Below the pieces are notes generated by a model, which had not been told where the DNA came from, made no database searches, and saw nothing but the letters and a program-made list of their open reading frames with translations. The position numbers were made by a program, and so were the translations under genes. From NCBI GenBank assembly GCA_964603585.1, contig CAZRVK010000001.1, positions 69,327-133,326 on the forward strand: DNA of 64,000 nucleotides. The letters run 5' to 3'. Numbering within the stretch: the stretch's first letter is position 1; every line of letters begins with the position of its first letter. Below are positions 25,599 to 40,550 of the stretch, in pieces. This stretch comes from an uncultured Planctomycetales bacterium. Its GTDB lineage: Bacteria; Omnitrophota; Gorgyraeia; Gygaellales; Profunditerraquicolaceae.

Positions 25599-26771
25599 AT
25601 GGAAGAAATTACCCGGGTTAAATTAGAACTGGAACGCACCAAAAACGAGCTGGCGATACTCTATGAGGTCTCCAATGCCATGCGTACCACCTTAAAGCTG
25701 GATGAGATCCTCTACATTATCTTAACCGGAGTAACCGCCCATACCGGGCTTGGGTTTAACCGGGCGGTACTGTTTTTGGTTAATGAAACAGACGGCCTGA
25801 TCGAAGGCACCATGGGGATCGGCCCGGAAACTGGTGAGGACGCCAACCGGGTATGGAAACGCATCGAACAGGAACAAATGGACTTAGAAGACCTGATCAG
25901 CGCCTATAAATTCTCTAAAACCGCGGTTGATTCCAGTTTTAACCAGCAGATCCGCCGGCTAAAAATCCCGATCCACGAGCCAAGTGGCGGGATCCTGGCA
26001 ATAAGCGTATTAGACGGGATGCCAATACACTTAACCAGCGAAACCATACATAATTACTCTAATGACCCTATTGTGGCAATGCTAAAGGCCACGGAACTGG
26101 TTTTGGTCCCGCTTAAAGCAAAGGACAAGGTAAACGGCATAGTACTGACCGATAACTTCATTACCAAAAAACCGATCACTAAAGATGATATCCGGATGCT
26201 GATCATGTTGTGCAACCAGGCAGGTCTGGCAATAGAAAACTCCCAGCTTTACGAAAAAACCGAAATGCGCGCGCATTCGGATTATCTGACCGACCTATGG
26301 AACCACGGGTATTTTCAATACCTCCTGCAAACTGAATTTGAAAAAGCCAAAGCCACCCAATCACCCCTTAGCCTGATCATGCTGGATATCGATGATTTTA
26401 AGATCTATAATGACCGTCTTGGTCATCAGGCAGGAGACCAGATCTTAAAGGAGATCAGCAATCTGCTTAAGAACCAATCCCGGAAAATGGATTTTGTCTG
26501 CCGCTATGGCGGGGAAGAATTTACCATCATCATGCCAAAAACCAATAAGGATGAAGCATTTGCCATTGCAGAAAAATTAAGGCAGGACCTCTACAAGCAC
26601 AACTTCGCGCATGAAGAAATCCTGCCCAATAAGAAACTTACCGTAAGCTTAGGGCTTTCCACCTTTCCTTCCGACGGATCAACCCCTTCTGACCTGATCC
26701 TTTATTCCGATAAAATGCTGTATCAGGCCAAGCGTAAAGGCAAAAACACCACCTGTTACTGTAATCCTTAA
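25599..26771 (+). CDS. GGDEF diguanylate cyclase with N-terminal GAF-like sensor domain
   Basis: RYGGEEF active-site motif; only plus-strand gene in a long minus-strand run. Confidence 0.8.
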   Translation: MEEITRVKLELERTKNELAILYEVSNAMRTTLKLDEILYIILTGVTAHTGLGFNRAVLFLVNETDGLIEGTMGIGPETGEDANRVWKRIEQEQMDLEDLISAYKFSKTAVDSSFNQQIRRLKIPIHEPSGGILAISVLDGMPIHLTSETIHNYSNDPIVAMLKATELVLVPLKAKDKVNGIVLTDNFITKKPITKDDIRMLIMLCNQAGLAIENSQLYEKTEMRAHSDYLTDLWNHGYFQYLLQTEFEKAKATQSPLSLIMLDIDDFKIYNDRLGHQAGDQILKEISNLLKNQSRKMDFVCRYGGEEFTIIMPKTNKDEAFAIAEKLRQDLYKHNFAHEEILPNKKLTVSLGLSTFPSDGSTPSDLILYSDKMLYQAKRKGKNTTCYCNP

Positions 26772-29700
26772 ACCGAATCTTCTACAATCTCTGTATCCAG
26801 GTCTTTAGCCTCGGCACGGCCTAAACTGTCATTAACCTCTGGCTTCTTATCCTGGGAGAATTTTACCGAGACTATTTTTGAAACACCGGACTGCTCCATG
26901 GTAATACCGTACATCACACTGGCGTTAGCGATGGTCTTTTTATTGTGCGTGATCACGATAAACTGCGAACCTTTGGCAAATTCCTGCAGTATCTTGCCAA
27001 ACCGGTCAACATTGGCCTCATCAAGAGCGGCATCGATCTCATCTAAAATACAGAAAGGCGCAGGTTTAACCTTGAATATGGCAAATATCAAAGCTACCGC
27101 CGCCATGGACTTTTCGCCGCCCGAAAGTAAAAGCACGTTTTGCAACTTCTTGCCCGGAGGCCGGCAGATCACTTCAATACCAGACTCCAGGGGATCGCTT
27201 TCATCGGTCAGGAACACCTGGGCATCCCCGCCATTGAACAAGAGGCGGAAATAATTCTTAAATTCCACCTTTACCTTTTCAAAAGTCTCCAAAAACATCT
27301 GTTTGGTGGTACGGTTGATCTTTAAGATCGCCTGATGCAAAGATTCCTTGGCAGACACCAGATCCGTCTGCTGTTGAGTAAGAAAATCATACCTCTGTTT
27401 TAATTCATCATACTCCTCTATCGCGATCAGGTTTACATTGCCATAGGAGTCCAGTTTATCCTTTAGCCTTTGAATATCCTGGGTCAAGGCATTCACATCT
27501 ACCTGAACCACCTCCGCAACAGCGCCATTGGGATCCTGGGCGGGAACCAGCGTAGAATCAAGATCGGTCTTGTATGCCTGAAGCAGGCGTTCTTTTATAT
27601 TCAAATATTTAAAATCCACATCCTTAATGCTCATCTGCAGTTCATACATTTGAGTTTTCATCTCATCCATGGCCTTACGGTCAGCCTCGGTCTTTTCCAC
27701 GATACCGCTTGACTCATCGGCCAGCATTTTATATTGAGACTGCGCCTGACCCAATATCCCGGACTTTTCCTGTATAGTTTGCTTTGCCTGGTTAACCCTC
27801 GTATCCAGGTCACTGATCTCTGCGGCAAGAGACTGTCCGCGCAAAAGGCTATCCTTTATCTGGGCATCAAGGGCAACCAGATTCGCCTGATCCTGTGCAT
27901 ACGCCTCATCCATCATCTTTAAATTTGCCGCATCGGTATTGATCCGGCGATTAAGATCATCAAGCTCCGTCTTTATCTGTGTGATCGCAATTAAGGAATC
28001 TTCTTTTAATTTATTACTGATCGAGATACTGTTTTCTTCGTTTATAACAGCATCCCGGGCACTTCCGTCTGCTTTTTCTAACTCCGCCAGCTCAAGCTGA
28101 TAACGGCTGACATCACCGTCAAACCCGGCCAGTTCATTATCCACATCAGTGAGTTCAAGCGTAATCAACTCTTCTTCGGCCCTTATCTTCTCGAACTGCT
28201 CAAGGATCGTATGCTGATACGCCTTTTTATTGGCTAAGGCCAGCTCTTGAGCGCGCAAAAGCTCCTGCGAGGTCAAAAGGTCCTTATCCAGGGTATCCTT
28301 ATGGCTCTCCTTGACCCGTTTAACTACTTTTAAGGAATCGATCTTCATCTGGATCTGATCAATCCTTTCACTGATCTTTTGTGTATCCAGATCGATCGGT
28401 TTGGCTTCGCCGGCAAGTTTAAACCCTCCGGATTGAGAGTGGTCAGGGTCCTCGGTATTACCGGCTTCAGGATAGGCATTTACTTTAATCACCAAACCAC
28501 TCATCTTTTCTTGAGGCAGTTTATCCAGATAAATCACCGCATTCATCGACTCCCCAATACCGTCATACTCCGTCTTAAGCTTGCCTAAAAATTCTTTTTG
28601 CGATAAAAGGCTTAAATTCTGGCGTTCCAGGTCTTCAATATCAGAATCGATATTCTTGATCGATAAATTCTCGGTTTCCAGTTCTTTTTTGATCTCGGAA
28701 AGCTTAAGGCTTAGCTGGGCAAAATCCCGTTCAAGATCCGCCACTTCCTGGTTTATGTTATTTAAGTTGCCCTCAACGGTATTCTTTTCTTCGTTGACCT
28801 TGGCCCGCTCAATATCCAGTCTTTTTTTGCGCGCCAGCATTACCTGCTGTTTGGAAAGCAGGGTATTTATAGTATTATGCGCATTAGATATCTTTGCCGC
28901 CAGATCCAGGATATTCTTTTTGGCATCAGCGATATTCTCAAGCGACAGGCGTATCGCCGCTGTAATTTTCGCAAGTTCAGCCTCATGCTCCTTTAAAACC
29001 GCGGTTTTGTCCGCGATATTCTTATCAAGAGCGTTATACTCCTGTCGTAATTTATCCAGTTTTTCCTGGCTCTGCAGGAGGCGTGAATTTATCTGCTCGA
29101 CCTGGGTCGCCAGATACGCCTTGCTTGACTCCAGCTCAATGATCCTCTCTTTATTAAATGCGATATGCTGGCTGTCGCGGCTCAACATATTCTCCAGATT
29201 GGAGATCTCAAGCTTTATCTTGCTGATATTATCCTCGGCGGATTTTAATTCATCATGATGGGATAAAACCCTGGATTCCTGTTCCTTTATTGCCGCGGAT
29301 AACTCTGTTTCTTTAACCTCCAGTTCCTTTAAGGTGTTAAAGAGCTCGTCCTTTTGCTTTTGCAAAGCGTCTTTCTGGATTAATGCCAGCTTTATCTCTT
29401 TGGCCTTCAACTCTTCAAAAACCTCTTTATACCTGCGAGCCTTGTTTGCCTGACGTTCAAGAGAACCGATCTGGCGTTTAACTTCCAGAATAATATCATT
29501 GACGCGCAAAAGATTCTGCTCGGTTTCCTCCAGCTTGCGCAACGCCTCTCTTTTTTGCGCCTTGTATTTGGTGATCCCGGAGGCTTCATCAAAAACCAGG
29601 CGCCGGTCTTCCGGGCGGGAACTCAAAACTAGATCAATCTTTCCCTGCTGGACAAGGGAATAACTTTCCGCGCCAATACCTGTGCCCATCAAGAGATCCA

Positions 29701-30073
29701 GGATATCCTTTAAGCGCACCTGGGTTTTATTCAAAAGATATTCACTCTCGCCGTTACGGAATATCCTCCGGGTGATCGCCACCTCGTCATGGTCGACCGC
29801 AAAGAATTTATTTGTGTTATCGAAAGCAAGCGTCACTTCCGCCAAACTCAAAGGCTCACGCTTGTCCGTACCGTTAAAAATAACGTCCTGCATATCCGCC
29901 CCGCGCAGAGCTTTAACTGACTGCTCACCCAAAACCCAGCGCACCGAATCAAAAACATTGGACTTACCGCACCCATTAGGCCCAACGACCGCGGTCACCC
30001 CCGGCTCGAAATTAAGGACCGTCTTATCCGCAAATGATTTAAAACCTATCAGTTCCAGCCTTTTAAAATACAT
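26768..30073 (-). CDS. smc: chromosome segregation protein SMC
   Basis: ORF 26768-30121; likely start at internal MYFKRLELIGFKSF (ATG 30071-30073); Walker A GPNGCGKSN, long coiled coils, C-terminal LSGGEKSMAAVALIFAI…ILDEIDAALD. Confidence 0.9.
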   Translation of the reverse strand: MYFKRLELIGFKSFADKTVLNFEPGVTAVVGPNGCGKSNVFDSVRWVLGEQSVKALRGADMQDVIFNGTDKREPLSLAEVTLAFDNTNKFFAVDHDEVAITRRIFRNGESEYLLNKTQVRLKDILDLLMGTGIGAESYSLVQQGKIDLVLSSRPEDRRLVFDEASGITKYKAQKREALRKLEETEQNLLRVNDIILEVKRQIGSLERQANKARRYKEVFEELKAKEIKLALIQKDALQKQKDELFNTLKELEVKETELSAAIKEQESRVLSHHDELKSAEDNISKIKLEISNLENMLSRDSQHIAFNKERIIELESSKAYLATQVEQINSRLLQSQEKLDKLRQEYNALDKNIADKTAVLKEHEAELAKITAAIRLSLENIADAKKNILDLAAKISNAHNTINTLLSKQQVMLARKKRLDIERAKVNEEKNTVEGNLNNINQEVADLERDFAQLSLKLSEIKKELETENLSIKNIDSDIEDLERQNLSLLSQKEFLGKLKTEYDGIGESMNAVIYLDKLPQEKMSGLVIKVNAYPEAGNTEDPDHSQSGGFKLAGEAKPIDLDTQKISERIDQIQMKIDSLKVVKRVKESHKDTLDKDLLTSQELLRAQELALANKKAYQHTILEQFEKIRAEEELITLELTDVDNELAGFDGDVSRYQLELAELEKADGSARDAVINEENSISISNKLKEDSLIAITQIKTELDDLNRRINTDAANLKMMDEAYAQDQANLVALDAQIKDSLLRGQSLAAEISDLDTRVNQAKQTIQEKSGILGQAQSQYKMLADESSGIVEKTEADRKAMDEMKTQMYELQMSIKDVDFKYLNIKERLLQAYKTDLDSTLVPAQDPNGAVAEVVQVDVNALTQDIQRLKDKLDSYGNVNLIAIEEYDELKQRYDFLTQQQTDLVSAKESLHQAILKINRTTKQMFLETFEKVKVEFKNYFRLLFNGGDAQVFLTDESDPLESGIEVICRPPGKKLQNVLLLSGGEKSMAAVALIFAIFKVKPAPFCILDEIDAALDEANVDRFGKILQEFAKGSQFIVITHNKKTIANASVMYGITMEQSGVSKIVSVKFSQDKKPEVNDSLGRAEAKDLDTEIVEDSV

Positions 30074-30273
30074 TATCTTCTCCTCGGCACAGCCTTTGAG
30101 GAAACCGCGCCTTCCAGCCATGCATCGATTTTGTCGCGCTTAAAGCGCCATTGCCCGACTAATTTTAAAGCAGGGATCTTATTAGTTTTTAGCCATTCAT
30201 AAATGGTGCGCCGGCTGACCTTTAGATATCCTGCCAGGTCATCGATCGTCATTAATACATTATTATTTACCAT
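30073..30273 (-). CDS. HTH_17 (excisionase-family helix-turn-helix) DNA-binding protein, translationally coupled to smc
   Basis: …MTIDDLAGYLKVSRRTIYEWLKTNKIPALKLVGQWRFKRDKIDAWL; stop overlaps smc start (TAATG); the TTG start of track ORF 30073-30309 coincides with the -35 box, so start is ATG 30271-30273 or 30250-30252. Confidence 0.7.
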   Translation of the reverse strand: MVNNNVLMTIDDLAGYLKVSRRTIYEWLKTNKIPALKLVGQWRFKRDKIDAWLEGAVSSKAVPRRR

Positions 30274-30280
30274 AGATTTT

Positions 30281-30309
30281 ATTATATGTAAAGAAATAAA
30301 ATTTGTCAA
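30281..30309 (-). promoter_or_regulatory. sigma70-type promoter TTGACA-17-TATAAT for the HTH-smc operon
   Basis: minus strand: TTGACA (30304-30309) aattttatttctttaca TATAAT (30281-30286), then AAAATCT ATG. Confidence 0.6.
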
Positions 30310-30390
30310 GGAAATTCATCACATCCACTGTCATAAATATGCAGACATTAACATAATGATGAAATTACATGCTTATAAATGCTGAAATGA

Positions 30391-30430
30391 GAAGAAAAAA
30401 AATGGCGGTTCCAAAAAATCAGAACCGCCA
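30391..30430 (-). terminator. rho-independent terminator after the PilZ gene pair
   Basis: minus strand: GGCGGTTC-tgatttttt-GGAACCGCC hairpin then ATTTTTTTTCTTC. Confidence 0.65.
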
Positions 30431-30450
30431 CTTAAATTATCCCGTATTTT

Positions 30451-30801
30451 CTAAAGGTGCTGCATAAGGTATTGCTCGATATTCTTGCGGTCATCCTTAT
30501 GGATCGACGTAAACTCTATTCCGGCATCATAAGCCTGGCTGGTCCCGATATTACCAACCGCAAATTCATCGATCCATGCCACCCGTCCCTGGGCAGTAAC
30601 GCCTTTTTCATCCCCAGGCAGGGAAAATTTAAGGCTTAAGGTATCACCGATATTGAGCTTTTCCAAAGCAACGATACAAATCCCGCCGCCGCTAAGATTC
30701 TTGCTTTTTCCAACTTTTAAAAAGTCCGGTGACGAATTCAAAAGTTTATACTCTACTTCTACACTAAAATTCAGCCTGGGGAACCGCCTGCGTTCATCCA
30801 T
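30451..30801 (-). CDS. PilZ-domain c-di-GMP-binding protein
   Basis: RRRFPRLN (RxxxR) and NLSGGGICIV (D/NxSxxG) PilZ motifs. Confidence 0.75.
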   Translation of the reverse strand: MDERRRFPRLNFSVEVEYKLLNSSPDFLKVGKSKNLSGGGICIVALEKLNIGDTLSLKFSLPGDEKGVTAQGRVAWIDEFAVGNIGTSQAYDAGIEFTSIHKDDRKNIEQYLMQHL

Positions 30802-40479: not shown

Positions 40480-40508
40480 AATATACATTGCAAAGTATGT
40501 ATTGTCAA
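40480..40508 (-). promoter_or_regulatory. sigma70-type promoter TTGACA-17-TATATT for the HTH/AAR/KS operon
   Basis: minus strand: TTGACA (40503-40508) atacatactttgcaatg TATATT (40480-40485), ~48 nt upstream of the HTH ATG. Confidence 0.6.
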
Positions 40509-40513
40509 GGGTA

Positions 40514-40550
40514 TTTTAAAAAAGAAGGGGGACGGTCTCGACCGCCCCCC
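40514..40550 (-). terminator. rho-independent terminator after the lipoyl-domain gene (mdh-lpdA operon)
   Basis: minus strand: GGGGGCGGTCGAGACCGTCCCCC hairpin followed by TTCTTTTTTAAAAT. Confidence 0.65.

Follow-up and report, generated by a model that had tools for sequence, protein, structure and literature searches.

A stand-alone winged-helix gene directly upstream of smc in Omnitrophota and the candidate operator abutting its promoter

Among the described proteins that come closest to the one treated here is BldC from Streptomyces (PDB 6AMA/6AMK), the founder of the stand-alone MerR-like BldC family, which consists of a small winged helix without a dimerisation or effector domain and binds repeats over promoters, that of its own gene and of genes for chromosome segregation among them. 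BldC (68 aa) was reported to form cooperative head-to-tail multimers on 9-10-bp direct repeats lying one helical turn apart; at the smeA-sffA promoter these span positions -60 to -10, and the protein's own gene is among its targets, too (PMC5859096). The excisionases (Pukovnik Xis gp37, 4J2N; RdfS, 8DGL; Tn916 Xis) assemble into oligomers on phased direct repeats, whereby the DNA is bent, and MerR-like winged helices of chromosome and plasmid segregation are found in RacA of B. subtilis (5I41/5I44) and in pSK1 Par (8CSH). A dedicated site-specific DNA-binding protein is likewise tied to SMC in the ParB-parS loading of Smc-ScpAB. The repeats bound by pSK1 Par lie upstream of its own gene and serve both as centromere and as promoter, and RacA as well as pSK1 Par possess long coiled-coil or C-terminal domains for anchoring or oligomerisation. 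Here, we describe a locus in 64 kb of an Omnitrophota genome (the 64,000-nucleotide stretch of contig CAZRVK010000001.1, hereafter the window), in which a gene for a small helix-turn-helix (HTH) protein of the HTH_17 family precedes smc and a conserved 27-nt element abuts the -35 hexamer of its promoter. We judge the odds to be about even that the HTH protein binds the phased repeats of this element and autoregulates the HTH-smc operon.

Conservation of the HTH-smc adjacency in related genomes had been named as a check in an earlier note on this DNA, and the check came out in favour of the pairing. A scan with an HTH alignment, carried out on one genome per species, revealed relatives in 201 genomes, the best 80 of which were analysed, with 78 loci being uncut by a contig end. 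Within these, smc follows at most 360 nt downstream of the HTH gene in 74 of 78 genomes (five of the 74 with an intein-split smc) and in one further genome 1.8 kb downstream, behind inserted genes for a response regulator and a PilZ-methyltransferase, while for the remaining three no smc was identified within the 1.2-4 kb available downstream. When genomes and metagenomes were pooled, 174 of 185 complete HTH genes were found to be followed by a recognisable smc start; two further smc genes were found by tblastn, and one more lies 7 kb downstream, on the strand of the HTH gene. About 95% of the orthologous HTH genes (~175 of 185 loci) are hence located directly upstream of smc, whereby the HTH gene and the element were the starting points of the survey, so that the percentages represent shares of HTH loci and not of smc genes, and the counts represent loci and not independent lineages, as the pooled genome and metagenome loci may overlap. 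On three long contigs that differ in their upstream genes, the order HTH_17, SMC and convergent GAF-GGDEF was identified each time.

The spacer between both genes (n=174) measures 0-20 nt in 83 loci, 21-50 nt in 34, 51-150 nt in 41, 151-400 nt in seven and more than 400 nt in one locus, with the genes overlapping in another eight. The TAATG overlap named in the earlier note was confirmed for the window, where the HTH stop codon TAA (30075-30073) and the smc ATG (30073-30071) have one base in common; translational coupling by such an overlap is not a conserved trait, since just 8 of 174 loci possess one. Each of the printed spacers of 60-400 nt was seen by eye to carry a smc Shine-Dalgarno sequence at its end, and within these spacers neither a consensus promoter was found nor, by eye, an obvious terminator. 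Short spacers that lack a promoter or an obvious terminator argue for co-transcription of HTH and smc as the rule, rendering the TAATG overlap a local detail. In summary, HTH and smc form a predicted two-gene operon, with HTH being the first gene, that is conserved across Omnitrophota.

Inserts between HTH and smc are few, lie on the same strand and encode signalling proteins, i.e., a small PilZ protein, a receiver-domain response regulator and a PilZ-methyltransferase. They were identified in L013 and L070 (spacer ~355 nt), in L047 (4189-5928) and in L121, the insert of the latter being a 7-kb block of ketoacyl-synthase (KS), acyl carrier protein (ACP) and acyltransferase genes together with a histidine kinase and response regulators. 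Next to these, GC-rich hairpin repeats resembling REP or MITE sequences (e.g., cacccggcgctaa...gcgccggtg) occur in the leaders and HTH-smc spacers of many loci (among them L020, L021, L033, L053, L163 and L029), the window not being one of them; they have repeatedly inserted between the -10 hexamer and HTH as well as between HTH and smc, and explain most of the length variation.

Nearly all orthologous loci possess the same sigma-70 core promoter, and in nearly every locus the consensus tATGTyAAAGAATGTaAAGATTyTCC abuts it, being followed by TTGACA, 16-17 nt and TATAAT. Alignment of 78-79 loci on the -35 hexamer revealed an information content of ~0-0.2 bit beyond -80, of 0.4-0.9 bit in 10-nt-spaced blocks (TTT.CA / TTTGCA at -76, -66, -56 and -36) and of 1.2-2.0 bits over -27 to -1, where two ATGTnAAAGA repeats are located 10 nt apart. 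As this periodicity is one of 10 nt rather than of 3 nt, it argues against a hidden open reading frame (ORF) in the upstream region. Among 62 species genomes, the mean pairwise identity of the 27-nt element amounts to 83% (median 89%), as compared to 56% at the third codon positions of HTH, 50% in the promoter spacer, 31% immediately past the -10 hexamer and 27% in the far upstream region; the element is accordingly under a selection comparable in strength to that acting at first codon positions. The copy of the window (30310-30336, TTATGACAGTGGATGTGATGAATTTCC) is degenerate, with 17 of 27 matches to the consensus and a position weight matrix (PWM) score below 8 (median 42), and when read by hand against the consensus it retains the phased TG/GCA blocks in their 10-bp register. 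The element of the L047 clade possesses 14 of 27 matches.

With a 26-nt pattern that did not include TTGACA, a metagenome scan matched at least 120 stretches, 80 of which were examined: all 80 directly precede TTGACA, and all 77 that are uncut by a contig end lead into an HTH gene. Element and HTH protein were never seen apart, and they occur together also in L072, L084 and L121, though other genes follow there instead of smc. A PWM scan for a second 27-nt element gave none in the window or in the 80 related loci (~0.6 Mb), and the double repeat, with up to three mismatches allowed, has no match in the window. The half-site ATGTNAAAGA was found to be nominally enriched in the window (37 versus 21.8 expected); as 31 of the 37 copies reside on the coding strand, this points to an effect of codon composition and not to a set of sites, and the half-site was dropped as a marker of regulon sites. 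A known RNA in the upstream region was dismissed as well, as the Rfam search returned only sub-threshold chance matches, located over the terminator hairpin. Taken together, the upstream element may be regarded as a candidate operator.

The protein encoded next to this element matches PF12728 (HTH_17) with 63 bits (cutoff 27) and TIGR01764 ('excise') with 56.4 bits (cutoff 28.8), in line with the excisionase-family identity that the earlier note had assigned to it. Its closest relatives are 70-91% identical, the named ones stemming from Candidatus Omnitrophica/Omnitrophota, and a domain search with the 66 aa identified HTH-type domains only and no ParB/Srx CTPase domain. The protein consists of a winged-helix domain plus a short tail, without a coiled coil or an effector domain, whereby conservation is confined to residues 7-55 and the C-terminal tail varies; in the window, its C-terminal PRRR is encoded by the purine-rich Shine-Dalgarno region of smc. 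An AlphaFold 2 (AF2) model (pLDDT 74) suggests a beta-alpha-alpha-beta-beta-alpha winged helix (E7-9, H10-17, H21-31, E36-38, E41-45, H46-59), for which Foldseek returned the RacA DNA-binding domain as top PDB match, the other best matches being BldC-DNA complexes, Pukovnik Xis, RdfS, pSK1 Par on centromere DNA and MerR N-terminal domains. A profile-to-PDB sequence search weakly indicates the same proteins. The HTH product is hence best read as a stand-alone MerR-like/excisionase-type winged helix of the BldC/Xis structural kind.

Structural comparison with the described systems is therefore instructive in both directions. Like BldC, the HTH protein would be a small winged helix devoid of further domains, and 10-bp-phased repeats abut its promoter as its putative binding sites; yet these read ATGTnAAAGA / TTTGCA instead of AATTxxxxC, BldC is pleiotropic with many targets whereas here one type of site was found, at the protein's own promoter, and the sequence similarity to BldC is marginal (profile E 0.24). 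With the excisionases the protein shares the HTH_17/TIGR01764 domain and the fold, but it is accompanied by no integrase, att site or mobile element and instead heads a conserved operon beside smc. Different from RacA and pSK1 Par, it is a bare 50-aa domain with a short variable tail, and different from ParB it carries no ParB/Srx CTPase domain, its link to SMC being gene order alone. No paper tying Omnitrophota, SMC and a small HTH protein together was found in the library that was searched; the phylum-wide HTH-smc coupling and its operator-like element hence appear to be undescribed, while the protein class (stand-alone MerR-like/BldC-type) is already known.

The promoter of the HTH gene is the sole perfect (12/12) match to TTGACA-N16-18-TATAAT in the window, as compared to 0.05 +/- 0.22 expected from shuffles, and it ranks first in the promoter scan of the window, rendering chance an unlikely explanation. 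The 'textbook' sigma-70 promoter of the earlier note was thereby confirmed, and so was its reading of the TTG that opens the 78-aa ORF of the mechanical ORF list (30073..30309): this TTG belongs to the -35 hexamer, the coordinates of both agreeing (30309). As a strong terminator is located just upstream (30433-30400), the promoter begins a new transcription unit. Between the -10 hexamer and the ATG (30273-30271) the minus strand reads AAAATCT, the coding sequence starts with MVNNNVLMTIDD and the product begins with MVNNNVLMTIDDLAGYLKVSRRTIYEWLKTNKIPALKLVGQWRFKRDKIDAWLEGAVSSKAVPRRR. Orthologues share the N-terminus M-x(4-6)-LMTI(D/E)DL with an invariant Leu ahead of the internal Met, and this retention of the short M-x(4-6) extension favours ATG1 over ATG2 as start codon.

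The 7 nt between the -10 hexamer and the ATG leave no room for a Shine-Dalgarno sequence, and comparison of the orthologous loci lent support to the leaderless start considered in the earlier note. Out of 180 loci with a recognisable promoter, 57 possess an in-frame ATG 5-10 nt past the -10 hexamer, 110 a Shine-Dalgarno-like motif ahead of this same start, in a leader no shorter than 21 nt, and 13 a leader without a clear Shine-Dalgarno sequence; leaders of 11-20 nt were found in none. After removal of duplicate promoters, the leaderless type accounts for 49 of 162 (~30%), with the ATG at 6 nt (15 loci), 7 nt (19), 8 nt (1), 9 nt (12) or 10 nt (2), the distance of the window thus being the modal one, and the rest possessing leaders of at least 21 nt. 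This either/or pattern is as would be expected from selection for two workable modes of initiation and supports the idea of a leaderless start. The lambda cI transcript from PRM is a leaderless mRNA of a small DNA-binding autoregulator that starts at the A of its AUG; the -10 hexamer of the window is similarly placed, a geometry which is shared by ~30% of the orthologous loci.

Considering the proximity of gene and element and the precedent of the family, we infer that the HTH protein binds the element. Several copies would bind the phased sites cooperatively, all on the same side of the helix, in the manner of BldC, Xis and RdfS, and would thereby modulate the access of RNA polymerase to the -35/UP region. 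As the core promoter is already maximal, repression is favoured as the sign of autoregulation. A strong promoter combined with negative feedback is a means of stably dosing a protein that is harmful in excess, and a promoter of maximal strength that is clamped by its own product would keep the dose of the co-transcribed SMC steady and low in noise. The mRNA of the window probably starts at, or 1-2 nt from, the A of the ATG and would hence be leaderless, whereby smc would be translated from its own AGGAG directly at the HTH stop codon.

Several observations weigh against autoregulation. Among the orthologues, the recognition helix (SRRTIY[ED]W) does not vary while the element diverges, as documented by the copies of the window and of the L047 clade, and no covariation of protein and site was found; the combination of an invariant helix with a variable element does, though, render this comparison uninformative. 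The position of the site (-37 to ~-110 from the start site) is one that is used by activators, UP elements and nucleoid proteins as well. The structural matches are weak, with E values from 5e-3, TM values of ~0.6-0.7 and a model pLDDT of 74. Finally, the HTH core is 78-86% identical, as compared to 52-61% for SMC overall and 67-76% for the GGDEF neighbour, and a conservation above that of both exceeds what a regulator with a purely local function commonly shows.

The last observation was considered to favour a different function, in which the HTH protein serves as a partner of SMC in chromosome organisation, either as a site-specific loader or anchor at the element or as an abundant BldC-like nucleoid protein. 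An autoregulator and a loading or targeting factor had both been put forward in the earlier note, to which the candidate operator is added here. Here, the analogues are ParB-parS, RacA-ram and pSK1 Par with its centromere, and autoregulation would possibly be secondary, as it is for ParB and Par. The adjacency to smc in ~95% of at least 170 loci is consistent with this, as are the RacA and pSK1 Par centromere-binding domains among the top structural matches and the maximal consensus promoter, which would suit an abundant protein. A further point in its favour comes from the SMC itself, which lacks a canonical hinge, i.e., a module for DNA binding and dimerisation. The window SMC matches TIGR02168 (SMC_prok_B) with 872 bits (cutoff 567) in two aligned stretches, and SMC_N matches its residues 3-1065 with canonical head domains; SMC_hinge (PF06470) gave no match to residues 392-691, even at E<=1, and the first TIGR02168 stretch stops at position 514 of the model, the point at which a hinge would set in. 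In place of the hinge, a mini-module of ~60-70 aa (~28349-28561 on the minus strand, SMC residues ~505-575) resides between the coiled-coil arms and possesses the conserved motif IGESMNAxIYLDKxP...GLVIKV...FKLxGEAKPIDL. The canonical hinge is likewise replaced in the SMC proteins of L001, L002 and L005 (1080-1128 aa), and when the central SMC region was used in a word-indexed search, one match was obtained.

What speaks against such a partner function is that the HTH protein shows no conservation outside its 50-aa DNA-binding domain, with the tail in the window being dictated by the Shine-Dalgarno sequence of smc, that no HTH-SMC fusions were seen, that each examined locus or contig holds a single copy of the element, always at the HTH gene's own promoter, and that a few genomes keep the HTH gene and its promoter with other genes behind. 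As a consequence, we regard the partner function as rather unlikely. In a more far-reaching form, for which the odds are judged to be low, HTH_17 would act as a lineage-specific DNA-targeting or clamping cofactor of the hinge-reduced SMC, nucleating on the element or coating DNA as a BldC-like filament and handing DNA over to SMC, thereby replacing or supplementing ParB-parS and the DNA binding of the hinge. For such a cofactor, the convergent GAF-GGDEF gene may tie the system to cyclic di-GMP (c-di-GMP) signalling. This gene is located at most 400 nt from the end of smc in 99 of 106 loci that span the smc 3' end, its protein is 67-78% identical, and the conserved tail-to-tail order points to a possible link between c-di-GMP synthesis and smc.

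Side by side with this, a function of the HTH protein that is unrelated to smc was considered, e.g., that of a general regulator, with smc merely sharing the strong promoter and the element representing an UP element contacted by the C-terminal domain of the RNA polymerase alpha subunit (alpha-CTD), a Fis/IHF-like site or intrinsic curvature. Rich in A and T and with T-tracts and TG/CA steps in a 10-bp phase, the element resides exactly in the UP-element/activator zone, and the variants of protein and element do not covary. MAD1-type HTH_17 proteins have moreover been described as widespread regulators heading unrelated operons. These points are opposed by the conserved G/C positions (ATGT, GA, TCC), which together with the identity of 83% exceed the needs of an UP element, by the absence of the element from all other promoters of the searched material, that of the paralog included, and by the constant co-occurrence of protein and element. 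A function apart from smc is hence considered improbable.

The paralog in question, a second HTH_17 gene of the window, had been described in the earlier note as a close paralog 10 kb away, a closeness that did not hold, as the two proteins are distant (28% identity) and the second one belongs to a separate orthogroup, conserved at 70-80% identity within Omnitrophota. Its operon, of which it is the first gene, contains genes for a Pfam-less ~340-aa protein as well as for ketoacyl synthases and ACP, in place of the latter two polyketide-cyclase and acyltransferase genes in relatives. The 27-nt element was not found at its consensus-like promoter. Since this orthogroup, too, resides at the head of an operon, HTH_17 regulators in this position may be a theme of the phylum, which mildly favours a regulatory function of the smc-linked protein.

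A mobile-element excisionase (recombination directionality factor) or a mad1/mad3 pair of the MADS defence system, suggested by the family name 'excisionase', by a match to NCBIfam MADS1 (70 bits, under its cutoff of 80) and by the PADLOC matches of mad1 to HTH (40 bits) and of mad3 to the SMC C-terminus (233 bits), is effectively refuted and very improbable, as MADS1 stays below its cutoff, no integrase, methyltransferase or MAD6-8 gene was found in any examined neighbourhood (the neighbours being PilZ, SMC and GGDEF), the HTH gene is a stable chromosomal orthologue with synteny conserved across species, the SMC passes the housekeeping equivalog model TIGR02168, and a mad3 match by a real SMC head is to be expected from MADS profiles built from HHpred alignments to PDB homologues.

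The coordinates of the locus and of the second HTH_17 gene are compiled in Table 1. Nearly all long ORFs of the window are located on its minus strand. The PilZ gene was ruled out as part of the HTH-smc unit, since it resides upstream of HTH in just 9 of 154 loci and the upstream synteny is hence not conserved. As to the smc genes of the relatives, 5 of 80 species genomes (L034:4197-6050, L035, L074, L077 and L082) possess a ~540-aa LAGLIDADG intein in the SMC Walker A motif (GPNGCGK|C...VVHN|S; Intein_splicing 98 bits, LAGLIDADG_3 56 bits), which is absent from the window.

Table 1. Positions of the features discussed, given in coordinates of the window
Feature	Position	Strand	Remarks
GAF-GGDEF diguanylate cyclase gene	25599..26771	(+)	tail-to-tail with smc, 4-nt overlap of the gene ends
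smc, 1101 aa	26768..30073	(-)	start ATG 30073-30071
HTH_17 gene, 66 aa from ATG1	30073..30273	(-)	N-terminal extension kept in orthologues
Shine-Dalgarno sequence AGGAG of smc	30080..30084	(-)	within the 3' end of the HTH gene, 6 nt ahead of the smc ATG
Alternative start ATG2 of the HTH_17 gene	30252	(-)	would give 59 aa
Core promoter, sigma-70-type	30281..30309	(-)	TTGACA 30309-30304, 17-nt spacer, TATAAT 30286-30281
Conserved upstream region, ~77 bp	30310..30386	(-)	abuts the -35 hexamer; blocks phased every 10 bp
Intrinsic terminator of the upstream PilZ gene	30400..30433	(-)	15-bp stem and T-run; 5' border of the HTH-smc unit
PilZ gene upstream of the HTH gene	30451-30801		
Second HTH_17 gene, 76 aa	40202-40432	(-)	28% identical to the smc-linked HTH
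Promoter of the second HTH_17 gene	~40488-40516	(-)	TTGACA promoter, leader ~50 nt

In bacteria, SMC loading and dosage control are known mainly via ParB-parS in a few model organisms. The locus described here may serve as a phylum-wide alternative for study, in which smc, encoding an SMC without a canonical hinge, is paired with a very small DNA-binding protein of extreme conservation and with a single conserved cis-element. Ordinary autoregulation would still yield a testable operator-regulator pair for an uncultured phylum, and the 27-nt element serves as a marker of the HTH-smc locus in metagenomes. That the same gene appears leaderless in some species and possesses a leader, mostly with a Shine-Dalgarno sequence, in others amounts to a natural experiment on translation initiation. 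If the HTH protein were to act together with SMC on DNA, it would constitute a new type of SMC accessory factor.

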